NCBI RefSeq assembly: GCF_048403405.1
Contig: NZ_CP183129.1
Source: Escherichia coli
Lineage (GTDB): Bacteria > Pseudomonadota > Gammaproteobacteria > Enterobacterales > Enterobacteriaceae
Length of the DNA: 64,000 nt
Strand: one strand, 5' to 3'
Of this stretch, positions 10,022 through 32,245 are shown piece after piece; within the stretch, counting starts at the first letter, position 1; each line of letters starts with the position of its first letter. The notes under the pieces are model-generated. The model had not been told where the DNA came from, made no database searches, and saw nothing but the letters and a program-made list of their open reading frames with translations. The translations under genes and the position numbers were made by a program.

Positions 10022-10049
10022 CCGACGCCAGTGTGCGTCGGTTTTTTTT
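10022..10049 (+). terminator. intrinsic terminator after thyA (ccgacgc-loop-gcgtcgg followed by a T run)
   Basis: Hairpin plus T8 read directly from the sequence, about 20 nt after the thyA stop. Confidence 0.6.
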
Positions 10050-11933: not shown

Positions 11934-14900
11934 ATGTTAAGGGTCTACCATTCCAATCGTCTGGACGTGCTGGAAGCGTTGATGGAGTTTATCGTCGAAC
12001 GCGAACGGCTGGACGATCCTTTCGAACCAGAGATGATTCTGGTGCAAAGTACCGGTATGGCGCAGTGGCTGCAAATGACCCTGTCGCAAAAGTTTGGTAT
12101 TGCGGCAAACATTGATTTTCCGCTGCCAGCGAGCTTTATCTGGGATATGTTCGTCCGGGTGTTACCGGAAATCCCCAAAGAGAGCGCCTTTAACAAACAG
12201 AGCATGAGCTGGAAACTGATGACTCTGCTGCCGCAACTGTTGGAGCGCGAAGACTTTACCCTGTTGCGGCATTATCTGACTGACGATAGCGACAAGCGAA
12301 AACTGTTCCAGCTTTCTTCAAAAGCGGCGGACCTGTTTGACCAGTATCTGGTCTATCGTCCGGACTGGCTGGCACAGTGGGAAACAGGACATTTGGTTGA
12401 AGGGCTGGGAGAAGCACAGGCCTGGCAAGCGCCGTTGTGGAAGGCGTTGGTGGAATATACCGACGAACTCGGGCAACCGCGCTGGCACCGCGCCAATCTT
12501 TATCAGCGCTTTATCGAAACGCTGGAGTCCGCGACGACCTGCCCGCCGGGGTTACCTTCGCGCGTATTTATATGCGGTATTTCCGCGTTACCGCCTGTTT
12601 ATCTCCAGGCGCTACAGGCGCTGGGTAAACATATTGAAATCCATCTCCTGTTTACCAACCCCTGCCGTTATTACTGGGGCGACATTAAAGATCCTGCTTA
12701 TCTGGCGAAACTGCTGACTCGCCAGCGCCGACACAGTTTTGAAGATCGCGAATTACCGCTATTTCGCGACAGCGAAAATGCCGGACAGCTCTTTAACAGC
12801 GATGGTGAACAGGATGTCGGCAACCCGCTGCTGGCCTCATGGGGCAAGCTTGGGCGCGACTACATTTATCTCCTTTCTGATCTGGAGGGCAGCCAGGAGC
12901 TGGACGCCTTTGTCGATGTCACGCCAGATAACCTGCTGCATAACATTCAGTCTGACATTCTGGAACTTGAAAACTGCGCTGTTGCGGGTGTGAATATCGA
13001 AGAGTTTTCCCGTAGCGATAACAAACGCCTGCTTGATCCACTGGATAACAGTATCACCTTCCACGTTTGCCATAGCCCGCAGCGCGAAGTTGAAGTTTTA
13101 CACGATCGCCTGCTGGCTATGCTGGAGGAAGACCCGACATTGACTCCGCGCGACATCATCGTGATGGTGGCTGATATCGACAGCTACAGTCCGTTTATTC
13201 AGGCAGTGTTTGGTAGCGCACCTGCGGATCGTTACCTACCTTACGCCATTTCCGACCGTCGGGCGCGGCAGTCACATCCGGTACTGGAAGCGTTTATCAG
13301 CCTGTTATCACTGCCTGACAGTCGCTTTGTGTCAGAGGATGTGCTGGCGTTGCTGGATGTGCCGGTGCTGGCGGCGCGGTTTGACATCACCGAAGAAGGG
13401 CTGCGTTATTTACGCCAGTGGGTCAACGAATCCGGCATTCGTTGGGGGATAGATGACGACAACGTTCGCGAGCTGGAACTCCCCGCCACCGGACAACACA
13501 CCTGGCGATTTGGCCTGACGCGCATGTTGCTGGGCTACGCGATGGAGAGCGCGCAGGGCGAGTGGCAATCGGTTCTACCTTATGATGAATCGAGCGGCTT
13601 AATTGCAGAACTGGTGGGGCATCTGGCTTCACTGCTAATGCAGCTAAACATCTGGCGTCGCGGGCTGGCGCAGGAGCGTCCGCTGGAAGAGTGGTTGCCG
13701 GTTTGTCGCGATATGCTCAACGCCTTCTTCCTGCCGGATGCGGAAACCGAAGCGGCGATGACGCTGATCGAACAACAATGGCAGGCGATTATCGCCGAAG
13801 GTTTAGGTGCGCAGTATGGCGACGCGGTGCCGCTGTCACTATTGCGTGATGAACTGGCACAGCGCCTGGATCAGGAACGTATCAGCCAGCGTTTTCTCGC
13901 CGGACCGGTTAACATTTGTACTCTGATGCCAATGCGTTCCATCCCATTCAAAGTGGTTTGCCTGCTGGGAATGAACGACGGCGTTTATCCACGCCAGCTT
14001 GCGCCATTGGGCTTTGACCTGATGAGCCAGAAACCGAAGCGTGGCGACCGTAGCCGTCGCGATGACGACCGCTATCTGTTCCTGGAAGCGTTAATTTCCG
14101 CGCAGCAAAAACTCTATATCAGCTATATCGGGCGTTCTATTCAGGATAACAGTGAACGTTTCCCGTCGGTACTGGTGCAGGAACTGATCGACTACATCGG
14201 GCAAAGCCATTATCTACCGGGCGATGAAGCGCTCAACTGTGATGAAAGCGAGGCAAGGGTAAAAGCGCATCTTACTTGCCTCCATACCCGGATGCCGTTT
14301 GATCCGCAAAACTACCAGCCAGGCGAACGACAAAGCTATGCTCGTGAATGGCTACCTGCGGCCAGCCAGGCTGGTAAAGCACATTCTGAATTTGTTCAGC
14401 CGCTGCCGTTTACCTTACCGGAAACCGTGCCGCTGGAAACGCTACAACGATTCTGGGCGCATCCGGTGCGGGCGTTTTTCCAGATGCGCTTGCAGGTGAA
14501 CTTCCGTACCGAAGACAGCGAAATCCCCGACACCGAGCCATTTATTCTGGAAGGGCTTAGTCGTTATCAAATCAATCAGCAGTTATTGAATGCACTGGTT
14601 GAGCAGGATGATGCCGAACGCTTGTTCCGCCGCTTCCGGGCGGCAGGGGATTTACCGTATGGCGCTTTTGGTGAAATTTTCTGGGAAACACAGTGCCAGG
14701 AGATGCAGCAGCTTGCCGACAGAGTCATTGCCTGTCGCCAGCCGGGGCAAAGTATGGAAATTGATCTCGCCTGCAACGGTGTGCAGATAACTGGCTGGTT
14801 GCCGCAGGTGCAGCCGGATGGCCTGTTGCGCTGGCGTCCCTCTTTATTAAGTGTGGCGCAGGGAATGCAACTTTGGCTGGAACAACTTGTCTACTGTGCC

Positions 14901-15302
14901 AGCGGTGGTAATGGTGAAAGTCGCCTTTTTCTACGCAAAGACGGCGAGTGGCGTTTTCCGCCGCTTGCAGCCGAACAGGCTTTGCATTACCTCTCACAAC
15001 TGATTGAGGGGTATCGTGAAGGAATGTCCGCGCCATTGCTGGTGTTACCTGAAAGTGGCGGCGCGTGGCTAAAAACCTGTTATGACGCGCAAAACGATGC
15101 CATGCTGGATGACGATTCCACGTTACAAAAAGCCCGTACGAAATTCCTTCAGGCTTACGAAGGCAACATGATGGTGCGTGGCGAAGGTGATGATATCTGG
15201 TATCAACGGCTCTGGCGGCAATTAACACCAGAGACAATGGAGGCCATCGTTGAACAGTCGCAACGTTTCCTGTTACCGCTGTTTCGCTTTAATCAGTCAT
15301 GA
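11934..15302 (+). CDS. recC: exodeoxyribonuclease V gamma subunit
   Basis: 1122-aa ORF; expected length and position. Confidence 0.95.
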   Translation: MLRVYHSNRLDVLEALMEFIVERERLDDPFEPEMILVQSTGMAQWLQMTLSQKFGIAANIDFPLPASFIWDMFVRVLPEIPKESAFNKQSMSWKLMTLLPQLLEREDFTLLRHYLTDDSDKRKLFQLSSKAADLFDQYLVYRPDWLAQWETGHLVEGLGEAQAWQAPLWKALVEYTDELGQPRWHRANLYQRFIETLESATTCPPGLPSRVFICGISALPPVYLQALQALGKHIEIHLLFTNPCRYYWGDIKDPAYLAKLLTRQRRHSFEDRELPLFRDSENAGQLFNSDGEQDVGNPLLASWGKLGRDYIYLLSDLEGSQELDAFVDVTPDNLLHNIQSDILELENCAVAGVNIEEFSRSDNKRLLDPLDNSITFHVCHSPQREVEVLHDRLLAMLEEDPTLTPRDIIVMVADIDSYSPFIQAVFGSAPADRYLPYAISDRRARQSHPVLEAFISLLSLPDSRFVSEDVLALLDVPVLAARFDITEEGLRYLRQWVNESGIRWGIDDDNVRELELPATGQHTWRFGLTRMLLGYAMESAQGEWQSVLPYDESSGLIAELVGHLASLLMQLNIWRRGLAQERPLEEWLPVCRDMLNAFFLPDAETEAAMTLIEQQWQAIIAEGLGAQYGDAVPLSLLRDELAQRLDQERISQRFLAGPVNICTLMPMRSIPFKVVCLLGMNDGVYPRQLAPLGFDLMSQKPKRGDRSRRDDDRYLFLEALISAQQKLYISYIGRSIQDNSERFPSVLVQELIDYIGQSHYLPGDEALNCDESEARVKAHLTCLHTRMPFDPQNYQPGERQSYAREWLPAASQAGKAHSEFVQPLPFTLPETVPLETLQRFWAHPVRAFFQMRLQVNFRTEDSEIPDTEPFILEGLSRYQINQQLLNALVEQDDAERLFRRFRAAGDLPYGAFGEIFWETQCQEMQQLADRVIACRQPGQSMEIDLACNGVQITGWLPQVQPDGLLRWRPSLLSVAQGMQLWLEQLVYCASGGNGESRLFLRKDGEWRFPPLAAEQALHYLSQLIEGYREGMSAPLLVLPESGGAWLKTCYDAQNDAMLDDDSTLQKARTKFLQAYEGNMMVRGEGDDIWYQRLWRQLTPETMEAIVEQSQRFLLPLFRFNQS

Positions 15303-15477: not shown

Positions 15478-18366
15478 ATGCCCAGCAGCACCTGGTTCAA
15501 AGCATTATTGTTGTTTGTTGCCCTTTGGGCACCCTTAAGTCAGGCAGAAACGGGATGGCAGCCGATTCAGGAAACCATCCGTAAAAGTGATAAAGATAAC
15601 CGCCAGTATCAGGCTATACGTCTGGATAACGGTATGGTGGTCTTGCTGGTTTCTGATCCGCAGGCGGTTAAATCGCTCTCGGCGCTGGTAGTGCCCGTTG
15701 GGTCGCTGGAAGATCCCGAGGCGTACCAGGGGCTGGCACATTACCTTGAACATATGAGTCTGATGGGGTCGAAAAAGTACCCGCAGGCTGACAGTCTGGC
15801 CGAATATCTCAAAATGCACGGCGGCAGTCACAATGCCAGCACGGCACCGTATCGCACGGCTTTCTATCTGGAAGTTGAGAACGACGCCTTGCCCGGTGCG
15901 GTGGACCGCCTGGCGGACGCTATTGCAGAACCCTTGCTCGACAAGAAATACGCCGAACGTGAACGTAATGCAGTGAATGCCGAATTAACCATGGCGCGTA
16001 CGCGTGACGGGATGCGCATGGCACAGGTCAGCGCAGAAACCATTAACCCGGCACACCCCGGTTCAAAGTTTTCTGGTGGTAACCTCGAAACTTTAAGCGA
16101 CAAACCCGGAAATCCGGTACAGCAGGCGCTGAAAGATTTCCACGAGAAGTACTATTCCGCCAATCTGATGAAGGCGGTTATTTACAGCAATAAACCGCTG
16201 CCGGAGTTGGCAAAAATGGCGGCGGACACCTTTGGTCGCGTGCCGAACAAAGAGAGCAAAAAACCGGAAATCACCGTGCCGGTAGTCACCGACGCGCAAA
16301 AGGGCATTATCATTCATTACGTCCCGGCGCTGCCGCGTAAAGTTCTGCGCGTTGAGTTTCGCATCGATAACAATTCAGCGAAGTTCCGTAGTAAAACGGA
16401 TGAATTGATTACCTATCTGATCGGTAATCGCAGCCCAGGTACACTTTCTGACTGGCTGCAAAAGCAGGGATTAGTTGAGGGCATTAGCGCCAATTCCGAT
16501 CCTATCGTCAACGGCAACAGCGGCGTATTAGCGATCTCTGCGTCTTTAACCGATAAAGGTCTGGCGAATCGCGATCAGGTTGTGGCGGCCATTTTTAGCT
16601 ACCTCAATCTGTTACGCGAAAAAGGGATTGATAAACAATACTTCGATGAACTGGCGAATGTGCTGGATATCGACTTTCGTTATCCGTCAATCACCCGTGA
16701 TATGGATTACGTCGAATGGCTGGCAGATACCATGATTCGCGTTCCTGTTGAGCATACGCTGGATGCAGTCAATATTGCCGATCGGTACGACGCTAAAGCA
16801 GTAAAAGAACGCCTGGCGATGATGACGCCGCAGAATGCGCGTATCTGGTATATCAGCCCGAAAGAGCCGCACAACAAAACGGCTTACTTTGTCGATGCGC
16901 CGTATCAGGTCGATAAAATCAGCGCACAAACTTTCGCCGACTGGCAGAAAAAATCCGCCGACATTGCGCTCTCTTTGCCAGAGCTTAACCCTTATATTCC
17001 TGACGATTTCTCGCTGATTAAGTCAGAGAAGAAATATGACCATCCAGAGCTGATTGTTGATGAGTCGAATCTGCGTGTGGTGTATGCGCCAAGCCGTTAT
17101 TTTTCCAGCGAACCCAAAGCTGATGTCAGCCTGATTTTGCGTAATCCGAAAGCCATGGACAGCGCCCGCAATCAGGTGATGTTTGCGCTCAATGATTATC
17201 TCGCAGGGCTGGCGCTTGATCAGTTAAGCAACCAGGCGTCGGTTGGTGGCATAAGTTTTTCCACCAACGCTAACAACGGCCTTATGGTTAATGCCAATGG
17301 TTACACCCAGCGCCTGCCGCAGCTGTTCCAGGCATTGCTCGAGGGGTACTTTAGCTATACCGCTACGGAAGATCAGCTTGAGCAGGCGAAGTCCTGGTAT
17401 AACCAGATGATGGATTCCGCAGAAAAGGGCAAAGCGTTCGAGCAGGCGATTATGCCCGCGCAGATGCTCTCGCAAGTGCCGTACTTCTCGCGAGATGAAC
17501 GGCGCAAAATTTTGCCTTCAATCACTTTGAAAGAGGTGCTGGCCTATCGCGACGCCTTAAAATCAGGGGCTCGACCAGAGTTTATGGTTATTGGCAACAT
17601 GACCGAAGCCCAGGCAACAACGCTGGCACGCGATGTGCAAAAACAGTTGGGCGCTGATGGTTCGGAGTGGTGTCGTAACAAAGATGTCGTGGTCGATAAA
17701 AAACAATCTGTCATCTTTGAAAAAGCCGGTAACAGCACCGACTCCGCACTGGCAGCGGTATTTGTACCGACTGGCTACGATGAATACACCAGCTCAGCCT
17801 ATAGCTCTCTGTTGGGGCAGATCGTACAGCCGTGGTTCTACAATCAGTTGCGTACCGAAGAACAGTTGGGCTATGCCGTGTTTGCGTTTCCAATGAGCGT
17901 GGGGCGTCAGTGGGGCATGGGCTTCCTGTTGCAAAGCAATGATAAACAGCCTTCATTCTTGTGGGAGCGTTACAAGGCGTTTTTCCCAACCGCAGAGGCA
18001 AAATTGCGGACGATGAAGCCAGAAGAGTTTGCGCAAATCCAGCAGGCGGTAATAACCCAGATGCTGCAGGCACCGCAAACGCTCGGCGAAGAAGCATCGA
18101 AGTTAAGTAAAGATTTCGATCGCGGCAATATGCGCTTCGATTCGCGTGATAAAATCGTGGCCCAGATAAAACTGCTGACGCCGCAAAAACTTGCTGATTT
18201 CTTCCATCAGGCGGTGGTCGAGCCGCAAGGCATGGCTATTCTGTCGCAGATTTCCGGCAGCCAGAACGGGAAAGCCGAATATGTGCATCCTGAAGGCTGG
18301 AAAGTGTGGGAGAACGTCAGCGCGTTGCAGCAAACAATGCCCTTGATGAGTGAAAAGAATGAGTGA
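15478..18366 (+). CDS. ptrA: protease III (pitrilysin), M16 zinc metalloprotease, periplasmic
   Basis: 962-aa ORF with signal peptide and inverted zinc motif HYLEHM; lies between recC and recB. Confidence 0.95.
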   Translation: MPSSTWFKALLLFVALWAPLSQAETGWQPIQETIRKSDKDNRQYQAIRLDNGMVVLLVSDPQAVKSLSALVVPVGSLEDPEAYQGLAHYLEHMSLMGSKKYPQADSLAEYLKMHGGSHNASTAPYRTAFYLEVENDALPGAVDRLADAIAEPLLDKKYAERERNAVNAELTMARTRDGMRMAQVSAETINPAHPGSKFSGGNLETLSDKPGNPVQQALKDFHEKYYSANLMKAVIYSNKPLPELAKMAADTFGRVPNKESKKPEITVPVVTDAQKGIIIHYVPALPRKVLRVEFRIDNNSAKFRSKTDELITYLIGNRSPGTLSDWLQKQGLVEGISANSDPIVNGNSGVLAISASLTDKGLANRDQVVAAIFSYLNLLREKGIDKQYFDELANVLDIDFRYPSITRDMDYVEWLADTMIRVPVEHTLDAVNIADRYDAKAVKERLAMMTPQNARIWYISPKEPHNKTAYFVDAPYQVDKISAQTFADWQKKSADIALSLPELNPYIPDDFSLIKSEKKYDHPELIVDESNLRVVYAPSRYFSSEPKADVSLILRNPKAMDSARNQVMFALNDYLAGLALDQLSNQASVGGISFSTNANNGLMVNANGYTQRLPQLFQALLEGYFSYTATEDQLEQAKSWYNQMMDSAEKGKAFEQAIMPAQMLSQVPYFSRDERRKILPSITLKEVLAYRDALKSGARPEFMVIGNMTEAQATTLARDVQKQLGADGSEWCRNKDVVVDKKQSVIFEKAGNSTDSALAAVFVPTGYDEYTSSAYSSLLGQIVQPWFYNQLRTEEQLGYAVFAFPMSVGRQWGMGFLLQSNDKQPSFLWERYKAFFPTAEAKLRTMKPEEFAQIQQAVITQMLQAPQTLGEEASKLSKDFDRGNMRFDSRDKIVAQIKLLTPQKLADFFHQAVVEPQGMAILSQISGSQNGKAEYVHPEGWKVWENVSALQQTMPLMSEKNE

Positions 18367-21300
18367 TGTCGCTGAGACACTAGATCCTTTGCGCTTGCCC
18401 TTACAGGGCGAGCGCCTGATTGAAGCCTCTGCCGGCACAGGCAAAACCTTTACGATTGCGGCGCTCTATTTGCGCCTGTTACTTGGACTAGGCGGTTCCG
18501 CCGCCTTTCCCCGCCCGCTGACCGTTGAAGAACTGCTGGTGGTCACCTTTACCGAGGCTGCCACGGCAGAATTGCGCGGTCGTATCCGTAGCAATATCCA
18601 CGAGTTGCGCATCGCCTGTCTGCGTGAAACCACCGACAATCCACTGTACGAACGCCTGCTGGAAGAGATCGACGATAAAGCGCAAGCCGCGCAGTGGTTG
18701 TTGTTAGCCGAACGGCAGATGGATGAAGCGGCAGTCTTTACTATTCACGGTTTTTGCCAGCGCATGCTCAACCTGAATGCCTTTGAATCCGGCATGCTGT
18801 TTGAGCAGCAGCTGATTGAAGATGAGTCTCTGCTACGCTACCAGGCCTGCGCCGATTTCTGGCGTCGCCACTGCTACCCGCTGCCGCGTGAAATTGCCCA
18901 GGTGGTCTTTGAAACCTGGAAAGGGCCGCAGGCGTTGCTGCGCGATATTAATCGTTATCTGCAAGGCGAGGCACCGGTTATCAAAGCACCGCCGCCCGAT
19001 GATGAAACGCTGGCTTCCCGCCACGCGCAAATTGTGGCGCGTATCGACGCCGTAAAACAGCAGTGGCGCGACGCAGTGGGTGAACTGGATGCGCTGATCG
19101 AATCTTCTGGTATTGATCGACGCAAGTTTAACCGTAGCAATCAGGCTAAATGGATCGAGAAGATCAGCGCCTGGGCAGAAGAAGAGACCAACAGTTATCA
19201 GTTACCGGAGTCGCTGGAAAAATTCTCTCAGCGTTTCTTAGAAGATCGCACGAAAGCCGGGGGGAAACCCCGCGACATCCACTGTTTGAGGCGATCGATC
19301 AACTGCTTGCAGAACCATTGTCGATCCGTGATCTGGTGATAACCCGCGCATTGGCTGAGATCCGCGAAACAGTAGCGCGTGAAAAACGCCGCCGTGGCGA
19401 ATTGGGTTTTGATGACATGTTAAGTCGGCTCGATTCCGCGCTGCGTAGCGAAAGCGGCGAGGTGTTGGCAGCGGCGATCCGTACGCGATTCCCGGTGGCA
19501 ATGATCGATGAATTTCAGGATACCGACCCCCAGCAGTACCGAATTTTTCGCAGTATCTGGCACCATCAGCCGGAAACCGCATTGTTGCTGATTGGCGACC
19601 CGAAGCAGGCCATATATGCATTCCGGGGGGCGGATATCTTCACTTATATGAAGGCGCGTAGCGAAGTTCACGCCCACTACACCTTAGATACCAATTGGCG
19701 CTCCGCACCAGGAATGGTGAACAGTGTGAACAAGCTTTTCAGCCAGACTGATGACGCGTTCATGTTTCGCGAAATACCGTTTATTCCAGTGAAATCAGCC
19801 GGGAAAAATCAGGCGTTACGTTTTGTCTTTAAAGGTGAAACGCAGCCTGCGATGAAAATGTGGCTGATGGAAGGCGAAAGCTGCGGCGTTGGCGACTATC
19901 AAAGTACCATGGCGCAGGTATGTGCTGCGCAAATCCGCGACTGGCTACAAGCCGGACAGCGGGGCGAAGCGTTGCTGATGAACGGCGACGACGCGCGTCC
20001 GGTGCGTGCTTCGGACATCAGTGTGCTGGTGCGCAGCCGTCAGGAGGCCGCCCAGGTGCGCGACGCCTTAACGTTGCTGGAAATCCCTTCCGTTTACCTT
20101 TCGAACCGCGACAGTGTTTTTGAAACTCTGGAAGCGCAGGAAATGCTTTGGTTGTTGCAGGCGGTGATGACGCCCGAACGTGAGAACACCCTGCGTAGTG
20201 CGCTGGCAACGTCAATGATGGGGCTGAACGCGCTGGATATCGAAACGCTGAACAATGACGAACATGCGTGGGATGCGGTAGTCGAAGAGTTCGATGGTTA
20301 TCGGCAAATCTGGCGCAAACGTGGCGTTATGCCGATGCTGCGGGCGCTGATGTCGGCGCGTAAGATTGCAGAAAACTTGCTGGCAACGGCAGGCGGTGAG
20401 CGGCGTCTTACCGATATCTTGCATATCAGCGAACTGCTACAAGAAGCCGGAACGCAGCTGGAAAGTGAACATGCGCTGGTACGCTGGTTATCGCAACATA
20501 TCCTCGAGCCAGACAGTAATGCCTCCAGCCAACAAATGCGCCTCGAAAGTGATAAACATCTGGTGCAGATTGTCACGATCCATAAATCAAAAGGGCTGGA
20601 ATATCCGCTGGTTTGGTTGCCATTTATTACCAATTTCCGCGTCCAGGATCAGGCGTTCTATCACGATCGCCACTCGTTTGAGGCTGTTCTGGATCTTAAC
20701 GCTGCGCCAGAAAGTGTCGATCTCGCGGAGGCCGAACGTCTGGCGGAAGATCTGCGTTTGCTTTACGTGGCGCTGACGCGTTCGGTTTGGCATTGCAGTC
20801 TCGGCGTTGCACCGCTGGTGCGCCGTCGTGGCGATAAAAAAGGTGACACCGACGTCCACCAAAGTGCGCTCGGGCGTTTGCTGCAAAAAGGGGAACCGCA
20901 AGATGCGGCAGGGCTTCGCACCTGTATTGAAGCGTTATGCGATGATGATATTGCCTGGCAAACGGCACAAACGGGTGATAACCAGCCCTGGCAGGTTAAT
21001 GATGCTATAACTGCAGAACTGAATGCGAGGACACTACAACGATTGCCCGGCGATAACTGGCGTGTCACCAGCTACTCCGGTTTGCAGCAGCGTGGTCACG
21101 GTATCGCTCAGGATCTGATGCCACGGCTGGATGTTGATGCCGCAGGCGTGGTCAGCGTCGTTGAAGAACCGACGTTAACACCGCATCAGTTCCCGCGCGG
21201 TGCGTCACCGGGGACATTCTTGCACAGTTTGTTTGAAGACCTCGATTTTACCCAGCCGGTTGACCCGAACTGGGTACAGGAAAAACTGGAACTCGGCGGC

Positions 21301-21900
21301 TTTGAATCGCAGTGGGAACCGGTGTTGACCGAGTGGATCACGGCAGTCCTCCAGGCACCTCTCAATGAAACGGGTGTTAGCCTGAGTCAGCTTTCCGACC
21401 GCGATAAACAGGTGGAGATGGAGTTTTACCTGCCGATTAGTGAACCGCTCATCGCCAGCCAGCTTGATGCACTAATTCGCCAGTTTGATCCGCTATCCGC
21501 TGGCTGCCCGCCGCTGGAGTTCATGCAGGTACGCGGCATGTTAAAAGGCTTTATCGACCTGGTATTCCGCCACGAAGGGCGTTATTACCTGCTCGACTAT
21601 AAATCCAACTGGCTGGGTGAAGACAGTTCGGCTTACACCCAACAGGCTATGGCAGCGGCGATGCAGGCACACCGCTATGATCTGCAATATCAGCTTTATA
21701 CCCTGGCGCTGCACCGTTATCTGCGCCATCGCATTGCTGATTACGACTATGATCGTCACTTTGGCGGCGTTATCTATCTGTTCCTGCGTGGCGTTGATAA
21801 AGAACATCCGCAACAAGGGATTTATACAACCCGACCCAACGCCGGGTTGATTGACCTGATGGATGAGATGTTTGCCGGTATGACCCTGGAGGAGGCGTAA
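18350..21900 (+). pseudogene. recB: exodeoxyribonuclease V beta subunit, split over two reading frames by a -1 shift at a G6 homopolymer (about 19259-19264)
   Basis: ORF track: 18350..19339 (N-terminal 305 aa of RecB, then 21 aberrant codons) and 19150..21900 (remainder) in different frames. Read as ...TKAGG then ETPRHPLFE...; a seventh G would restore one frame. Confidence 0.7.
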
Positions 21901-23726
21901 TGAAATTGCAAAAGCAATTACTGGAAGCTGTGGAGCACAAACAGCTACGCCCGCTGGACGTGCAGTTTGCCCTGACCGTGGCGGGAGATGAACATCCTGC
22001 CGTCACCCTCGCGGCAGCCCTGTTAAGCCACGACGCCGGGGAAGGGCATGTCTGTTTACCGCTCTCACGACTGGAAAATAACGAGGCGTCGCATCCGCTG
22101 TTGGCGACCTGTGTCAGTGAAATCGGTGAGTTACAAAATTGGGAAGAATGCTTGCTGGCTTCACAAGCGGTAAGCCGGGGAGATGAACCAACGCCGATGA
22201 TCCTCTGTGGCGATCGTCTTTATTTGAATCGCATGTGGTGTAACGAGCGCACAGTGGCACGCTTTTTCAACGAAGTGAATCATGCCATTGAGGTTGATGA
22301 AGCTCTACTGGCGCAAACCCTGGACAAACTTTTTCCAGTAAGCGATGAAATTAACTGGCAAAAAGTTGCGGCGGCAGTGGCGCTGACGCGGCGGATTTCG
22401 GTGATTTCCGGCGGTCCTGGCACCGGTAAAACGACCACCGTAGCGAAGTTGCTGGCAGCCTTAATTCAAATGGCCGACGGAGAACGCTGCCGTATCCGTC
22501 TGGCTGCACCAACGGGTAAAGCTGCCGCGCGCTTAACCGAATCTCTCGGCAAGGCTTTGCGACAGTTACCGCTGACCGATGAACAAAAGAAACGCATTCC
22601 GGAAGATGCCAGTACTTTGCACCGATTGCTGGGTGCGCAGCCGGGTAGCCAGCGTTTACGTCATCATGCCGGTAACCCGCTGCATCTTGATGTGCTGGTG
22701 GTAGATGAAGCGTCAATGATCGATCTGCCTATGATGTCGAGACTGATCGACGCCTTGCCCGATCATGCGCGAGTGATCTTTCTCGGCGATCGTGATCAAC
22801 TGGCCTCGGTTGAGGCTGGGGCTGTGCTGGGCGATATCTGCGCTTATGCCAACGCGGGCTTTACCGCCGAGCGTGCCGGGCAGTTGAGCCGCCTGACGGG
22901 AACTCACGTTCCGGCAGGAACTGGCACAGAAGCGGCATCTTTGCGCGACAGTCTCTGCCTGCTGCAAAAAAGCTATCGTTTCGGCAGTGATTCTGGCATT
23001 GGTCAGTTAGCTGCGGCGATCAACCGTGGTGATAAAACGGCAGTGAAAACCGTTTTTCAGCAGGATTTTTCTGATATCGAAAAACGGCTTTTACAGAGCG
23101 GCGAAGATTATATTGCGATGCTTGAGGAAGCTCTTGCGGGTTACGGACGTTATCTGGATCTGCTGCAAGCGCGTGCCGAGCCGGATTTAATCATTCAGGC
23201 GTTCAATGAGTACCAGCTTTTGTGCGCCCTGCGGGAAGGGCCGTTTGGCGTGGCTGGACTGAATGAGCGAATTGAGCAGTTTATGCAACAGAAGCGCAAA
23301 ATTCATCGTAATCCGCACTCTCGTTGGTACGAAGGCCGACCGGTGATGATTGCCCGTAATGACAGCGCGCTTGGGTTGTTTAATGGCGATATCGGTATCG
23401 CTCTGGATCGCGGACAGGGGACGCGCGTTTGGTTTGCGATGCCGGACGGCAATATTAAGTCTGTGCAACCGAGTCGCCTGCCAGAGCACGAAACTACGTG
23501 GGCGATGACGGTACATAAATCGCAGGGATCGGAGTTCGACCATGCGGCGTTGATTTTACCGAGCCAACGCACGCCGGTAGTAACACGAGAGCTGGTTTAC
23601 ACCGCGGTGACCCGCGCGCGTCGCCGTCTGTCGCTGTATGCCGATGAGCGCATATTAAGTGCGGCAATCGCCACTCGTACTGAGCGGCGCAGTGGTCTGG
23701 CGGCGTTGTTTAGTTCACGGGAATAA
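21900..23726 (+). CDS. recD: exodeoxyribonuclease V alpha subunit
   Basis: 608-aa ORF with Walker A (GGPGTGKTT); start overlaps the recB stop by 1 nt. Confidence 0.95.
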
Positions 23727-23734
23727 ACGTAATT

Positions 23735-23776
23735 GCCGGATGCGACGCACGAGTGTTACGCATGTCGCATCCGACG
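23735..23776. repeat. REP-like palindromic unit between convergent recD and argA
   Basis: gccggatgcgacg...cgcatgtcgcatccgacg inverted repeat read directly. Confidence 0.5.
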
Positions 23777-23787
23777 ATTTTCATCGC

Positions 23788-25119
23788 TTACCCCAAATCC
23801 GCCATCAACACTTTGGATTTACGCTGGTAGTTGTACAACTGCTTTTTGCTCTCGGGCAGTAAATCAATATCCACTGGGGTAAATCCACGTTCCTGGAACC
23901 AGTGAATACTGCGCGTGGTCAGCACAAATAATTTGCTTAAGCCGCTCTGCTTCGCCTGAGCGGCAATGCGTTCCAGCAGAACCTCGCCCCGTGATGAACT
24001 GCGGTAATCCGGGTGAACTGCCACACAGGCCATTTCCCCAATCTTCTCTTCCGGGAACGGATAGAGCGCGGCGCAGGCAATAGTCGTGTTATCGCGCTGA
24101 ATAATGGTGAATTTATCGATTTCCATCTCCAGCTGCTCGCGAGAACGGCGTACCAGAATACCTTGCTGCTCCAGCGGGCGAATCAACTCCAGAATACCGC
24201 CAATATCGTTGATTGTTGCGCGACGAATCTGCTCGGCGCTTTCCATCACAATCTGCGTACCGATACCGTCGCGTGAGAACAACTCTTGCAACAGCGCGCC
24301 ATCTTCCTGATAACTGATTAAATGACAGCGACGCACGCCGCTGCGGCAGGCTTTCACTGCGCCACGCAAAAAGCGCACCGTACCGGAGTTGTAATCGCCT
24401 TTCTCTTCCTGGGCTTCTACCCGCGCTTGCGCTTCGTTAGGGAAAAGTTCGGAGACAATATCACCGTCGTCATTAGTAACGCCCTGGGAAGAGCAAAAAC
24501 CAATCATCTTTTCAGCTTTCAGTTTGATGGCTAGTTGAGTGGCAATCTCTTCCGAGGTCAGATTAAAGCTCTCGCCAGTGACTGAAACAGCGACCGGCCC
24601 CATTAGCACTATTGCACCGCTGTCCAGTTGACGATGGATCGCGTCTTCATCAATCCGCCGGATACGCCCGCTATGGCAGTAATCCACTCCGTCATCGACG
24701 CCCAGCGGCTGGGCGATAATAAAATTGCCACTGACGACGTTGATATGCGCGCCCTGTAGCGGCGTGTTATTGAGACTCATCGACAGGCGAGCAGTAATAT
24801 CCAGTTGCAATGTTCCCGCAGCCTGCTTCACCAGTTCCAGTGTTTTGGCGTCGGTCACACGTATATTCTTGTGATACAGCGGTTCGTGGTGATGCGCAGC
24901 CAGATTTGCGTCGATCTGCGGACGTGCGCCATAGATCACCACCAGACGGATGCCGAGGCTGTGCAGCAACCCGATATCATTAACGATACTGGAGAAATTC
25001 TCATGCTCAATGGCTTCACCGCCGAGCATGATGACAAACGTTTTTCCCCGGTGGGTATTGATATAGGGAACCGAATGGCGGAATCCCTCGACCAGCTCGG
25101 TTTTACGTTCCTTTACCAC
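23788..25119 (-). CDS. argA: N-acetylglutamate synthase (amino-acid kinase domain + GNAT domain)
   Basis: ORF-track frame 23788..25185; probable GTG start at 25119 giving [11 protein letters not shown]... and 443 aa. Confidence 0.9.
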
Positions 25120-25350
25120 GGCACACCTCTTTGCATGATTATTCGAAATTAGTGTATTTTTATTCTGTTTTTTCGCAGGGTGCAAGTGTAAATTTTATGC
25201 GAGAGCGACTTTTTTATCAGTAATGCCGTGAATATAAAAAGAATGTTTACCGTTTATTAGATGACAGATTATGCGTCTTTCGCTAAAGTTTCCGGTCAAA
25301 TTAGTCGTTTACTTGTTACACAGCTTAGATTTCTTTTGCTCGGGAGAGGC

Positions 25351-26604
25351 ATGTCAGGATCCAACACTGCAATCAGCCGTCGTCGTTTACTGCAAGGCGC
25401 GGGTGCCATGTGGCTATTGAGCGTAAGTCAGGTCAGTCTGGCTGCGGTCAGCCAGGTCGTGGCGGTGCGCGTCTGGCCTGCGTCCAGCTACACCCGCGTG
25501 ACGGTAGAATCAAATCGTCAGCTGAAATATAAGCAGTTCGCGTTGAGTAACCCGGAACGCGTGGTGGTGGATATCGAAGATGTAAACCTGAACTCGGTAC
25601 TCAAGGGGATGGCGGCACAAATTCGTGCAGACGACCCGTTCATCAAGTCGGCGCGCGTCGGGCAATTTGACCCGCAGACCGTACGCATGGTTTTTGAATT
25701 AAAGCAAAACGTAAAACCGCAGCTGTTTGCCCTTGCGCCGGTCGCTGGGTTTAAAGAGCGTCTGGTGATGGACCTCTATCCGGCCAATGCACAGGATATG
25801 CAGGACCCGCTGCTGGCGCTGCTGGAGGATTACAACAAAGGCGACCTCGAAAAGCAGGTGCCGCCAGCACAAAGTGGTCCACAACCGGGTAAAGCAGGGC
25901 GCGATCGTCCGATTGTCATTATGCTTGACCCTGGCCACGGTGGCGAAGACTCCGGTGCGGTGGGGAAATACAAAACGCGCGAAAAAGACGTGGTATTGCA
26001 AATAGCTCGCCGTCTGCGCTCTCTGATCGAGAAAGAGGGCAATATGAAGGTGTACATGACGCGCAATGAAGACATCTTCATTCCGTTGCAAGTGCGCGTA
26101 GCAAAAGCCCAGAAACAGCGTGCTGACCTGTTTGTCTCTATCCATGCCGACGCCTTTACCAGCCGTCAGCCGAGCGGTTCCTCTGTGTTTGCGCTCTCAA
26201 CCAAAGGTGCAACCAGTACTGCGGCAAAATATCTGGCACAAACCCAGAACGCCTCGGACTTGATTGGTGGCGTGAGCAAAAGCGGTGACCGCTATGTCGA
26301 CCACACCATGTTCGATATGGTGCAGTCGCTGACCATTGCCGACAGCCTGAAGTTTGGTAAAGCGGTGCTGAATAAGCTCGGTAAAATCAACAAGCTGCAT
26401 AAAAATCAGGTTGAACAGGCCGGGTTTGCCGTACTAAAGGCACCAGATATTCCCTCCATTCTGGTCGAAACGGCGTTTATCAGTAACGTTGAGGAAGAGC
26501 GTAAACTGAAAACGGCGACCTTCCAGCAGGAAGTTGCGGAGTCTATTCTTGCGGGGATTAAAGCGTATTTTGCCGATGGGGCGACGCTGGCGAGAAGGGG
26601 ATGA
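25351..26604 (+). CDS. amiC: N-acetylmuramoyl-L-alanine amidase with Tat signal
   Basis: ATG at 25351 gives [19 protein letters not shown] (twin-arginine signal); ORF-track start 25261 is an extension; amidase_3 domain at the C-terminus. Confidence 0.9.
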
Positions 26605-26777
26605 TGTTTTTATTTATTCAATGAATTTATATTTCGTTGAATAGATAACATTTTCATGAATATTAGATGCTGGTTTTGTGACTGATGTCGAATATTTGAA
26701 TGTCGGCTTGAAAAATAAGCCGACCATCTCTTTAATTAAACACAATTCCGTGTAATGTATACACATTAGTTAATCAT

Positions 26778-26850
26778 CTTGTAACTGTTAAATCAGGCAA
26801 GGCAATGTTTGAAGTAATTATTACTTCTGACGTGCCTTGCCTTTTTTTTT
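26778..26850 (+). promoter_or_regulatory. RAT (ribonucleic antiterminator) element overlapping an intrinsic terminator in the leader of the antiterminator gene
   Basis: ttgtaactgttaaatcaggcaagg resembles the sac/bgl/lic RAT consensus; its 3' half (aggcaaggca, 26795-26804) pairs perfectly with tgccttgcct (26833-26842), which is followed by T8. Confidence 0.7.
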
Positions 26851-26861
26851 GGAGTCATGGA

Positions 26862-27686
26862 ATGATCATCGAAAAAGTCATGAACAATAATTGTGTACAG
26901 GCATCGATGAATGGACAGGAGGTTATCATTTCTGGACCTGGCGTCGGTTACAACAAAAAATATGGAATGTCGGTCCCTGAGCATCCGGCTAACCGGATTT
27001 TTTATGTCAGAAATGAACAAAAAAACAAACTCTATAAATTGATTGAACATGTAGATATTGAGTATGTGTTTGTTGCCGAAAAAATAGTGCAATATGCGGA
27101 GAAAAATCTCGAAAAAAATCTCAATCCATCGCTACTATTGATTCTTGCGGATCACATTTCGAATGCAATATCCCGAGTCGCTTCAGGTATACAAATTAAT
27201 AATGTTTTCCTTGATGAAATCAAAGCGTTGTACAAAGCAGAATATGCAATAAGCCGGGATGCATTAACCATCATCAATGAGCAATTTAGCTTTCAACTTC
27301 CGGATGATGAGATTGGTTTTATTGCATTGCATATTTTAAATAACTATGAAAATTCATCTGATTATGAATCGGTACGGATTATTGAATTATCTCAAAAAAT
27401 CACGGAGATTATCGAGGGTATTTATAACCGAAAGGTGGACAGAAGTTCATTTAACTATTCAAGATTTATGATGCACCTTAAGTATTTTTCTAATCGAGTT
27501 TTATGTAATGAAAAGATAAAACAGAAAGATATTGGTGACATCTATGAGCAGTTTCTTGAGAAAGACATCCTGTTACAGCGCGCAATTCATGAAATTGAAA
27601 GGTATCTGTATGCCACTTTTAAATATGAATTAATTTTAGAAGAAAAACTATATCTCTCAATTCGTACCAAAGTATTAATGGACTAA
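26862..27686 (+). CDS. BglG/LicT/SacY-family transcription antiterminator (CAT RNA-binding domain + two PRDs)
   Basis: ATG at 26862 preceded by ggag; N-terminus MIIEKVMNNNCV... aligns to LicT/BglG (MKIAKILNNNVV); the ORF-track start 26805 lies inside the leader terminator. Confidence 0.85.
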   Translation: MIIEKVMNNNCVQASMNGQEVIISGPGVGYNKKYGMSVPEHPANRIFYVRNEQKNKLYKLIEHVDIEYVFVAEKIVQYAEKNLEKNLNPSLLLILADHISNAISRVASGIQINNVFLDEIKALYKAEYAISRDALTIINEQFSFQLPDDEIGFIALHILNNYENSSDYESVRIIELSQKITEIIEGIYNRKVDRSSFNYSRFMMHLKYFSNRVLCNEKIKQKDIGDIYEQFLEKDILLQRAIHEIERYLYATFKYELILEEKLYLSIRTKVLMD

Positions 27687-27717
27687 TTATATATAACATT
27701 TATATGAGATAACCCAC

Positions 27718-29298
27718 ATGAAACAAAAGAAAGCCTGGAGTTTTTTTCAGAGCCTGGGGAAGGCATTTATGTATCCCATTGCTCTGCTAAGTGTATGTGG
27801 CATGATGCTAGGGCTAGGAAGTGGTTTAGCCAGTGATGATATGGCAAAGTTAATTCCATTTCTGGCTATTCCAATAATTAAAACCATACTTGATTTCATT
27901 GTTAGCCTTGGTTTGTTTGCCTTTGTTAATTTACCTGTATTGTTTGCGATAGCAATTCCCTTAGGATTATTAAAAGAGAAAGAGGATAAAGCCTATGGCG
28001 CTTTTTCTGGCTTAATTGGTTTTATGGCGATGCATCTGGGAACGAACTTTTATCTTAAACAGCACGACTTATTGGTCGCTGCTGACCAAATGTCGACACA
28101 TGGGCAAACCATCATTCTGGGGATCCAGTCCTACAATACCAGCGTGTTAGGGGGAATTGTTGCTGGGTTATTAGTCGCCAGCATGTATAAAAAGATCGTT
28201 AATTTACGCATTCCAGAATCATTAGGTTTTTATAGCGGCCCACGTCTGGTGCCTATCATTACACTGATTGTGATGAGTGGATTTGGTCTGATCATTCCTT
28301 TTATCTGGCCGCCGTTTTTCAATCTCTTCATGCTCATTGGCCACTGGATATCAACTTCCGGTCCTGTTGGTTATTTCTTCTATGCAGTTGCCGAACGTGT
28401 GACGATTCCTTTTGGCTTAAACCATCTGGTGACGTCAGTGTTCCGCTTTACGCCAATCGGCGGTTCGGCTGTGATTGGCGGCGAAGAGTATTACGGCACC
28501 CTGAACATGTTTATGGCGTACGTCAAAGAGAATGCGGTCATTCCGCTGGATTTGGCGGGGAAAATGGAGCAGGGCAAACTGATGATTCAGTACGGTCTGG
28601 CTGGTGCTGCACTGGCCATGTATCGCACTGCTCATGCTCAAAACAGAAAGGCTATCAAAGCATTGCTTATTTCCGGTGTGCTTACGGTTATTATTGGTGG
28701 CGTCAGCGAACCGATTGAATTTCTGTTCTTATTTGTCAGTCCGCTGCTGTTTGTCTTCCATGCCTTTATGAATGGATTCGCCAACATGGTCTTGCCATAT
28801 ATGGGCGTGAAGATGGGATTTACTGGCGATCTGATTCAATTTATTAGCTTTGGCGTATTGCGTGGCACAAGAACAGGTTGGCCGATCGCGGTGTGTGTCG
28901 AAGTGGCCTATTTCTTCATTTATTACTTTGTGTTCCGTTGGACCATTCTCAAATTTAACCTGATGACCGTAGGACGTGAAGAGTCCAGTCCTGTCACGCT
29001 GAACGCTCACGAAGAAACTGCAATAGCTAATATCCCAGCTTATGATAAATCAGAGTTGCAGGCAGCGGAGCAAATGGTTAAGGCTCTGGGTGGAAAAGAA
29101 AATATTAAATCACTGGATAATTGTGTCACTCGTTTGCGTTTAACTATCGCAGATATGGGATTGATAGATGAGGCTGCAATTAAAAGTGCCGGAGGGATTG
29201 CGGTTGTGAAACTTGATCAAAATACCTTACAAGTCATTATCGGCACTAAAGTCATCGCCCTGCGTCGGGATATGGATAACTACATGGGGATACGCTGA
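27718..29298 (+). CDS. PTS permease EIICB, glucose/maltose (MalX/PtsG-like) family; no EIIA domain
   Basis: 526-aa polytopic ORF; C-terminal EIIB domain with phospho-cysteine motif NCVTRLRL. Confidence 0.85.
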   Translation: MKQKKAWSFFQSLGKAFMYPIALLSVCGMMLGLGSGLASDDMAKLIPFLAIPIIKTILDFIVSLGLFAFVNLPVLFAIAIPLGLLKEKEDKAYGAFSGLIGFMAMHLGTNFYLKQHDLLVAADQMSTHGQTIILGIQSYNTSVLGGIVAGLLVASMYKKIVNLRIPESLGFYSGPRLVPIITLIVMSGFGLIIPFIWPPFFNLFMLIGHWISTSGPVGYFFYAVAERVTIPFGLNHLVTSVFRFTPIGGSAVIGGEEYYGTLNMFMAYVKENAVIPLDLAGKMEQGKLMIQYGLAGAALAMYRTAHAQNRKAIKALLISGVLTVIIGGVSEPIEFLFLFVSPLLFVFHAFMNGFANMVLPYMGVKMGFTGDLIQFISFGVLRGTRTGWPIAVCVEVAYFFIYYFVFRWTILKFNLMTVGREESSPVTLNAHEETAIANIPAYDKSELQAAEQMVKALGGKENIKSLDNCVTRLRLTIADMGLIDEAAIKSAGGIAVVKLDQNTLQVIIGTKVIALRRDMDNYMGIR

Positions 29299-30482
29299 TG
29301 AATGTTTTTAATACCCCTATCTCCCGTAAAGGAACATATTGCACTCAATGGGACTTTTGTGAGGACAGATTTGGTGTAAAAGATGTATTACCATTTTCTA
29401 TTTCAGATATGGATCTTCCGATACCGGAAGCTATCATCAGGGCATTAAAAAAACGCCTGGAACACCCGATTTTAGGGTACAGCCGTTGGCAGCATGATGA
29501 TTATCTGAATGCGATAGTCAATTGGTATCATCAACAATATAAAACTGAAATAAAACCAGAATGGATCACCTATAGCCCAAGTGTGATGTATTCAATTGCT
29601 AAGGCAATAGAGTTATTAACATTGAATGGAGATAACATTCTCATTTTTACGCCTGTTTATAACGCATTTTTTGATGTAATTAAACAAAGTGGTCGAAATA
29701 TGCTAACAACCTCTTTGAATAAAGAAAATGAGAGAGGCTACGCTATCAACTGGCAAGATTTTGAGCTAAAAATTAAAAGCGCGAAGATGGTGTTATTGTG
29801 TAATCCTCATAACCCGACAGGAACCGTCTGGTCGGAAGAAGATCTCTTCAAAATCGCTGCAAGCTGCGCAAAACAAAAAATCTGGCTATGTTCAGATGAA
29901 ATTCACAGTGATTTTGTTTTTAACCATGGTTTCACGTCCGCGTTAAAAATAAAAAATGACAAAGTAGTGGTGTTAAATTCGATTTCGAAAACATTTAATG
30001 TTCCTGCACTAACAGGATCATATATGATATCCGCTGACCAGGATTTTAATGATAAGTTTAGAACGATATCAAGATATCGCGATTTTGTAAACTCACCATC
30101 TATATTGAATGTGATTGCTACCATTGTTGCTTATAACGAATGTGAAGAATGGTTAAAGTCGTTAAAGGATCATATTGCCTCTAACATTCAATTTACCCAG
30201 CAGTATTTGAATGAAAATATTCCAGAATTGATCGTGAGGTCCGCTGAGGGTTGCTATTTTTCGTGGATAGATTGCTCGGCCATTGGCTATCCCTTTGATA
30301 AATTTTACCGACGATTAATTGATGAAGGGAAAGTGGGTATTATGGCGGGGTATGTTTATGGTACGGAAGGTGAGGGCTATCTGCGTCTGAATCTGGCCTG
30401 CGGTCGAGAAAAATTATATATGGGGCTTGTGCGCCTTGCGAGTGTAATTAAAAATATTAATCAGGAAAAAGAAAATGAATAA
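29298..30482 (+). CDS. MalY/PatB-like PLP-dependent C-S lyase (aminotransferase class I/II fold)
   Basis: 394 aa; N-terminus GTYCTQWDF...DVLPFSISDMD closely parallels MalY; PLP-lysine motif SISKTFN; start overlaps the PTS stop. Confidence 0.8.
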   Translation: MNVFNTPISRKGTYCTQWDFCEDRFGVKDVLPFSISDMDLPIPEAIIRALKKRLEHPILGYSRWQHDDYLNAIVNWYHQQYKTEIKPEWITYSPSVMYSIAKAIELLTLNGDNILIFTPVYNAFFDVIKQSGRNMLTTSLNKENERGYAINWQDFELKIKSAKMVLLCNPHNPTGTVWSEEDLFKIAASCAKQKIWLCSDEIHSDFVFNHGFTSALKIKNDKVVVLNSISKTFNVPALTGSYMISADQDFNDKFRTISRYRDFVNSPSILNVIATIVAYNECEEWLKSLKDHIASNIQFTQQYLNENIPELIVRSAEGCYFSWIDCSAIGYPFDKFYRRLIDEGKVGIMAGYVYGTEGEGYLRLNLACGREKLYMGLVRLASVIKNINQEKENE

Positions 30483-31071
30483 CTCGGAACTTATACATCT
30501 TATTAAACATTTTATGCGTAACGAACATAAGGCCGTTGAAGAGGTTATTGATTCCCCACTTTCTGAAGTCGCTAATTTAATTAAAGTATTACAATCTTGT
30601 CAGGGTAAAGTTGTTTTTATTGGTGTTGGTAAGTCCGGTATTATTGCCAGAAAACTCGCAGCAACATTTGCCAGTACCGGAACTCCCTCGTTTTTTGTTC
30701 ACGGTACGGAAGCGGTACACGGCGACCTTGGAATGGTGGCGAAAGACGATGTTGTTATTCTTATTTCAAACAGTGGTGAGACGGCGGAAATCCTGGCGAC
30801 ACTGCCTAGTCTGAAAAGAATGGGTAATTATTTGATCTCTTTTACCCGCAGTCATCACTCATCGCTTGCGATAAGTTGTGATTTATCTGTTGAAATCCCC
30901 GTCAAAAGTGAGGCGGATAATTTAGGTTTAGCACCGTCATGCTCGTCTACTGTTGTTCTGGTTGTTGGTGATGCGGTGGCGCTTGCACTCTCCGAATTGA
31001 AAAAATTTACTCGTGCCGATTTCGGCTTATATCATCCAGGAGGTGCACTCGGCATTAAAGCAAATTCATAA
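30475..31071 (+). CDS. SIS-domain-only sugar-phosphate isomerase-like protein (resembles the N-terminal half of KdsD/GutQ arabinose-5-phosphate isomerases, no CBS domains)
   Basis: 198 aa; motifs GVGKSGIIARKLAATFASTGTPSFFVHGTEAVHGDLGM, SNSGET and HPGGALG; start overlaps the MalY-like stop by 8 nt. Confidence 0.8.
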   Translation: MNNSELIHLIKHFMRNEHKAVEEVIDSPLSEVANLIKVLQSCQGKVVFIGVGKSGIIARKLAATFASTGTPSFFVHGTEAVHGDLGMVAKDDVVILISNSGETAEILATLPSLKRMGNYLISFTRSHHSSLAISCDLSVEIPVKSEADNLGLAPSCSSTVVLVVGDAVALALSELKKFTRADFGLYHPGGALGIKANS

Positions 31072-31142
31072 TTTCAAAATATAAATACAGTAACCGGTCA
31101 CGCCATCTTTTGGGGTGGCGTTCATTGAAGTGAGTGTCAGCT

Positions 31143-32090
31143 ATGAAAAATGTTCTGGTCACCGTCCCCAGCTTTTCAGCACGCTGTGTTTCCGCCAGCA
31201 AGTTGCTAAGAGAGAATAATTTTAATCTTATTATTAAGAATAATGTGGAGCATCTGCTTAAATCAGAATCCACTGCATTACGAGAATCTATTTGCGCGGT
31301 CATCGCCGGAAAAGATTGTTATCAGGCGGATACGCTATCATTGCTGCCTGGTGTGAAAATAATATCGAGATTCGGGACGGGGATAGACAATATTGATCTT
31401 CGTGCGGCACAGCAATCCGGTATTGTAGTCAAAAATGCGGTTGGGATTAATTCAAATGCGGTTGCGGAATTTATCATTGGACTTATCTTTGCGAGCATGA
31501 GAAATATTCCTGGCAGCTATCATGCGATGCAAAATGGCTACTGGGTTGAGTCGCATGGCTGTGAATTACAAGGGAAACGGATTGGCCTGGTTGGCTACGG
31601 TAATATAGGTAAAACCCTGGCGAAAAGGTTGTCTGGTTTTGATGTTGAGCTTTTAGCTTTTGACAAACAACCCGATTTTCAGGCCGCTGGCAAAGATGGA
31701 GTTCAGTTTGTATCAATTGAAGATATCTTTATGCAGTCGCATGTCATCATTGTTCTTTTACCTTTTTCTCCTGAGCTGGAGAACTTCATTAGTCATAAAT
31801 ATTTGTCAATGATGCGCAATGGTGCTCTGATCATCAATGCCGCAAGGGGAAAGTTGCTGGATGAGGGCGCTTTACTTCAGGTGATTGAAGAACGAAATGT
31901 GTTTGCGGCGCTGGATGTGTTTAGCTCTGAACCGTTGGCGCAATTTAGCCCACTGCTACATGCCAAAAATATCATTACAACGCCGCATATTGCGGCCGCC
32001 ACCGTTGAGTCATACCAGCAAACCGGGATACACGTTGCCCAGTCAATAATTGATTACTTCGCAGGAAGGGAGATAAAAAACGTGTTGTGA
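31143..32090 (+). CDS. D-isomer-specific 2-hydroxyacid dehydrogenase, NAD-binding
   Basis: ATG at 31143 preceded by gaagtgag (ORF-track 31134 is a GTG upstream); Rossmann motif GLVGYGNIGKTLAKRL. Confidence 0.8.
   Translation: MKNVLVTVPSFSARCVSASKLLRENNFNLIIKNNVEHLLKSESTALRESICAVIAGKDCYQADTLSLLPGVKIISRFGTGIDNIDLRAAQQSGIVVKNAVGINSNAVAEFIIGLIFASMRNIPGSYHAMQNGYWVESHGCELQGKRIGLVGYGNIGKTLAKRLSGFDVELLAFDKQPDFQAAGKDGVQFVSIEDIFMQSHVIIVLLPFSPELENFISHKYLSMMRNGALIINAARGKLLDEGALLQVIEERNVFAALDVFSSEPLAQFSPLLHAKNIITTPHIAAATVESYQQTGIHVAQSIIDYFAGREIKNVL

Positions 32091-32168: not shown

Positions 32169-32245
<77 letters not shown>

Follow-up and report, generated by a model that had tools for sequence, protein, structure and literature searches.

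The recB gene in the stretch of Escherichia coli DNA analysed here (64,000 nucleotides, hereafter the window) is broken into two reading frames by the absence of a single G, and the missing base is, in our judgement, very probably a homopolymer-length error of the consensus. According to this reading, a run of seven G would have been called as six in the assembly consensus, and the recB of the strain would be an ordinary intact gene of 1180 amino acids. Three findings taken together point to an artefact: the deletion appears private to the window, no G/C run of the region is longer than the one affected, and the same contraction recurs among unrelated public assemblies at the rate found at control tracts where it cannot be biological. 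That this particular assembly made the error is something we infer from base rates. At face value, the call would label an E. coli of a clinical lineage as RecBCD-deficient, which would bear on repair, on susceptibility to quinolones and on defence against phages, and the evidence says that it should not be taken in that way. Homopolymer-length consensus errors are a well-described error class (PMC8812927; PMC11017572) and many of the pseudogenes found in assemblies are artefacts (PMC11017572). Our search of the literature for earlier descriptions of a homopolymer frameshift in recB gave no relevant result.

The G6 homopolymer is located at positions 19259-19264 on the plus strand, inside the interval 19251-19270 that had been reported by the initial annotation, and the direct reading of the sequence is cgaaagcc-gggggg-aaaccccgcgacat. 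It covers recB codons 301-303, and a one-base deletion in it is the cause of the frameshift. The ORF list contains two entries in different plus-strand frames, 18350..19339 (329 amino acids, with a GTG start) and 19150..21900 (916 amino acids), and together with the translations it bears out the division of recB between two frames that had first been described. The gene in fact begins with the ATG at position 18359, where it overlaps the 3' end of ptrA. The 5' part of recB (18359..19339, plus strand) consists of 302 correct codons followed by 24 out-of-frame codons and a TGA; the first-frame translation reads ...EDRTKAGG and then KPRDIHCLRRSINCLQNHCRSVIW up to the stop, and the shortened product, MSDVAETL...TKAGGKPRDIHCLRRSINCLQNHCRSVIW, has 326 amino acids, with the Walker A motif GTGKT at residues 26-30. 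The 3' part (19265..21900, plus strand) is in the other frame and comprises codons 303-1180 and the stop. Helicase motif II DEFQD (384), the motifs after it and the nuclease domain at the C-terminus are all in this part, and its translation, ...ETPRHPLFEAIDQLL..., reaches the normal RecB C-terminus. The product that gene callers assign to it, of 854 amino acids, begins at the GTG at 19336, overlapping the upstream stop.

When one G was inserted in silico, a gene of 1180 codons plus the stop was obtained, without any internal stop, and the restored RecB was 100% identical to the RecB of strain 4621 (WP_001305798.1), in agreement with the earlier proposal that a run of seven G would give one continuous protein of about 1180 amino acids. 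It must be noted that the break in recB is a single discrete difference and not a statistical pattern, so that asking whether it occurs more than by chance is not applicable to it. A second G6 tract of recB (19625..19630, plus strand) is unaltered in the window; two error-prone Logan assemblies (L008 and L012), both of which also had the first contraction, have G5 at this site.

The adjacent genes on the plus strand are intact, as the initial annotation had stated, and their lengths are those annotated in the relative 4621: recC (11934..15302) encodes 1122 amino acids and carries a private H984Q (C>A at 14885), ptrA (pitrilysin, 15478..18366) encodes 962 amino acids and overlaps the start of recB by 8 nt at its 3' end, and recD (21900..23726) encodes 608 amino acids. 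The gene order of the window is aas/lplT, mutH, ptsP, thyA, recC-ptrA-recB-recD, argA, the metZWV tRNAs, the fuc operon, the gud genes and barA.

The closest relatives were sought in a reference set of 5,426 RefSeq complete E. coli genomes, with the window itself outside the set. Positions 8000-32000 of the window were matched at 100.0% by six complete genomes (GN02461, 4621, TUM1226, MS 69-1, OX030728 and TUM14771), and each of them spans 24,002 bases versus 24,001 in the query, i.e., one extra base. The explicit alignment with GN02461 gave a tract of G7. The alignment of the 64 kb with strain 4621 revealed 6 SNPs and exactly one indel, which is the missing G of recB, and the orthologues in the relatives form a single uninterrupted ORF of 1180 amino acids. 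Comparison with genomes of the same lineage, proposed as a check together with the annotation, has therefore returned G7 in the closest complete genomes, and among these the deletion appears, from the sequences compared, to be private to the window. In addition, no G/C homopolymer of at least 7 nt other than the recB tract occurs within the 64-kb region, so the sole indel falls on the sole run of this kind, which is the site of the window most prone to slippage and to miscalling. The tract is in frame in approximately 99% of the genomes; the number of G7 carriers behind this figure was taken from the matches to a 100-nt region (5,425 genomes) and not counted directly.

The contracted tract was found repeatedly in public assemblies. 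With the 100-nt query, 30 complete genomes were identical to the window, G6 included. A shorter query of 40 nt (17 nt, G6 and 17 nt) was also used, which seeds only on contracted alleles because megablast requires an exact 28-mer, and it detected recB G6 in 47 of the 5,426 complete genomes, while G5 (39-nt span) was present in one further genome. The hosts and sources of the carriers were dog, cattle, poultry, quail, pig, human and wastewater, and the carriers belong to many unrelated lineages. PGAP had labelled recB as frameshifted in the three G6 genomes inspected. By accession series, the carriers were distributed among CP027xxx (8), CP127xxx (7), CP183xxx (7), CP146xxx (6) and others, and their grouping follows the submission batch and not the phylogeny. 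Among the Logan contigs, the exact 326-amino acid product was encoded on 26, which come from separate sequencing runs and represent several lineages. In a collection of 15 billion proteins it lies within a cluster whose 562 members are truncated RecB N-fragments, with tails that are those of G6 (326 amino acids), G8 (310 amino acids) and G5 (309 amino acids). Of ten Logan contigs in which recB has G6, four had further one-base homopolymer deletions nearby, one of the sites being the second G6 tract at 19625, and six had no other coding indel.

Control tracts of 7 nt were sought among the other G/C runs of strain 4621, including two further 50-kb chunks of its genome. At codon 129 of ispD (L020:42420-42426, strain 4621), about 43 kb past the end of the window, there is a G7 tract, where a -1 shift results in a truncation to 140 amino acids. 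This gene of the MEP pathway is essential in E. coli. Its contraction consequently cannot be biological, and the frequency of that contraction provides a base rate for the artefact. The ispD tract was contracted in 48 of the 5,426 complete genomes, including two records of K-12 MG1655, C600 and ER1709, and in the MG1655 record CP010440 the gene is annotated as a frameshifted pseudogene. The contractions in K-12 and in the other records must be artefacts. As a second control we used a C7 tract in actS (L023:8367-8373, strain 4621), from a 50-kb chunk in which an intergenic G7 was left out; it was contracted in 43 of the 5,426 genomes, 17 of them from one ETEC series and with K-12 DHB4 among the others. 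In the other chunk, a C7 within an IS3 fragment was unusable as a control. The contraction rate at each of the three tracts (recB, ispD and actS) was 0.8-0.9% of the complete assemblies. On these counts the frequency of recB G6 does not exceed the artefact base rate, the agreement between recB and the controls being approximate because error rates can differ between tracts.

The carriers of the three contractions also overlap. Seven of the recB-G6 genomes had in addition an ispD or an actS contraction, versus 0.76 expected (hypergeometric P = 8.6e-6), which indicates that it is particular assemblies that are subject to contractions, and the carrier lists of recB, ispD and actS are all concentrated in a few accession series. 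At the protein level, truncated IspD forms a cluster of 223 members, one exact sequence being present on 83 contigs, and this cluster displays the same G6/G5/G8 set as RecB with comparable contig counts. Given these matching spectra and the extra homopolymer deletions in the Logan contigs, finding G6 in independent assemblies does not count as evidence of a biological origin.

The recB change resembles the known homopolymer consensus errors in being a one-base contraction, apparently private to one assembly, of the region's longest G/C run, in the recurrence of the identical change in unrelated assemblies, in laboratory strains and in an essential gene, and in sharing assemblies and submission batches with other contractions. 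It differs from them in one respect that counts against an error: the window has no other indel with respect to its relative in 64 kb, so the assembly is not generally sloppy, though a second G/C run of at least 7 nt is likewise absent from the window. The initial annotation had left the choice between a true frameshift and an assembly error undecided. The rate at the control tracts, the overlapping batches and the K-12 strains now favour the second of these options, and the biological reading, with loss of RecBCD, UV sensitivity and the other expected effects, has no support beyond the base call itself.

The main alternative is a genuine and recent -1 slipped-strand mutation in G7, private to this isolate or to a small subclone, that would have left a near-null recB; we consider it unlikely, although it deserves more weight than any other competing explanation. 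In this case the gene would yield the 326-amino acid fragment with Walker A only, the RecB helicase core and the nuclease domain being lost unless tRNA-Gly, by occasionally re-pairing in the -1 frame along the run of G, restored the reading frame at a low rate. Such a product, truncated after residue 302 and deprived of helicase motif II onward and of the nuclease domain, would be like that of recB null alleles. A truncation at this point is functionally equivalent to the known recB nulls, and the RecBCD-minus phenotype is known: if the mutation were real, double-strand-break repair by RecBCD would be lost, with reduced viability and sensitivity to UV and quinolones, and exonuclease V would no longer restrict linear DNA and phage DNA. 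Mutants of this type are viable but sick and are strongly counter-selected, so that real alleles are expected to be rare in isolates, which also argues against the mutation here.

In favour of a real mutation, the G6 base call is present in the sequence, homopolymers are also favoured sites of true replication slippage, and the window is otherwise clean at its long A/T runs, those of up to T9 (T9, A8 and T8) being in agreement with the relatives and free of indels. Its best support comes from a near-identical Logan contig (L010, SRR30285764), which covers window positions 17424-29339 with one SNP (at 23865) over 11.9 kb and which also has recB G6. This contig could be an independent relative with an inherited mutation, but it came from a G6-specific search over very many runs, and it could also be the same isolate or a chance find of that selective search. 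Moreover, G7 is present in all six closest complete genomes, the 47 contractions of recB stand beside 48 impossible ones in ispD and 43 in actS, so that real mutations cannot make up a sizeable share, and the G6 carriers are enriched for contractions at other tracts and are grouped by batch. In its absence from the six closest complete genomes and in its lack of any excess over the artefact base rate, the deletion is unlike recB nulls or natural pseudogenes.

The other private changes of the window are consistent with either explanation. With respect to both 4621 and GN02461, there were three private substitutions in approximately 50 kb, namely RecC H984Q (14885), C17U in a tRNA-fMet (32229) and FucO T192M (47251), with the recB deletion as the fourth change. 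None of the four is silent. This pattern fits unselected changes, which may be consensus errors (approximately Q41) or very recent mutations, and the fact that all are non-silent, with one of them in recC, agrees with recent unselected mutations as well as it does with errors. The probability by chance that at least two of the four private changes fall in recB or recC is about 0.1, which is not significant. The exact RecC protein with Q984 was absent from the collection of 15 billion proteins. The FucO substitution (C>T, codon 192) gives a protein identical to that found in a different E. coli lineage, with approximately 98.6% DNA identity, and its occurrence there indicates that it is tolerated. 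C17U is in the D-loop of one of the three initiator-type tRNA-Met copies (32169-32245, minus strand), the other two being unchanged, and the base affected is the cytosine that is methylated within a Dcm site (CCTGG, as read in the tRNA sense). The 61-nt variant with this change was found in 74 of 5,425 RefSeq genomes, i.e., it is recurrent, and it could be due to a hot spot of 5mC deamination or to a methylation-related miscall. A platform signature at methylation motifs was sought at the 6 SNPs, and the single one located in a Dcm site (1/6) was not significant. The window is continuous across the three-copy tRNA-Met array, where a short-read contig of another E. coli lineage seems, from coordinate arithmetic, to terminate; the uninterrupted array suggests that the window comes from a long-read-based assembly.

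Stronger versions of the biological explanation fare worse. It is very improbable that the window represents a natural RecBCD-deficient lineage, possibly together with the relative of SRR30285764 and perhaps with RecC H984Q as part of it, or that G7 acts as a reversible on/off switch. The least credible proposal of all is that the G tract has a function as a switch, either by phase variation of recB or by expression of G6 through programmed or efficient -1 ribosomal frameshifting or transcriptional slippage: although G5, G6, G7 and G8 versions are all present in public assemblies and tRNA-Gly could re-pair perfectly in the -1 frame on the G run, variation of the recB tract is no commoner than that of the essential-gene tract or of the third tract (47 vs 48 and 43), the frameshift is not conserved, with uninterrupted orthologues in the closest relatives, and the frequencies at the control tracts led us to reject programmed frameshifting as well as phase variation. 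The tract is like the poly-G contingency loci of Neisseria, Haemophilus and Campylobacter in being a coding-region G homopolymer whose length differs among public sequences. Unlike them, however, it does not vary above the control tracts, its 7 nt are fewer than those of the poly-G of classical contingency loci, it is part of a housekeeping repair enzyme and not of a surface or restriction-modification gene, and its carriers are grouped by batch and not by clone.

With a consensus error as the preferred reading, the practical value of the case is methodological, as approximately 0.8-0.9% of the RefSeq "complete" E. coli genomes are contracted at each of the three 7-nt tracts considered. The ispD and actS tracts can serve as quality-control markers, and ispD, being essential, is a convenient internal control for "pseudogenes".

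Some additional features were observed in the course of these comparisons. The lengths of A/T runs varied among the Logan contigs at T9 (26842-26850), A7 (27112-27118) and T8 (10042-10049); part of this variation came from assemblies that are clearly prone to error, and the T8/T9 difference at 10042 may be a genuine polymorphism between genes. In strain 4621, outside the region corresponding to the window, the type I-E CRISPR gene cas3 is annotated as a frameshifted pseudogene, as are two type III secretion genes of ETT2 (L020:27463-30163 and L023:18896-20717). Finally, five genes are located between amiC and the tRNA-Met array, at approximately 26860-32090 of the window, and encode a PRD-domain regulator, a PTS EIIC component, a MalY/PatB protein, a KpsF/GutQ isomerase and a phosphoglycerate dehydrogenase. 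This block is present in the window, 4621, GN02461 and A1.S1.18, while RM14723 and ETEC1738 are without it and have amiC abutting the tRNAs, and it constitutes a variable island adjoining the tRNA array.
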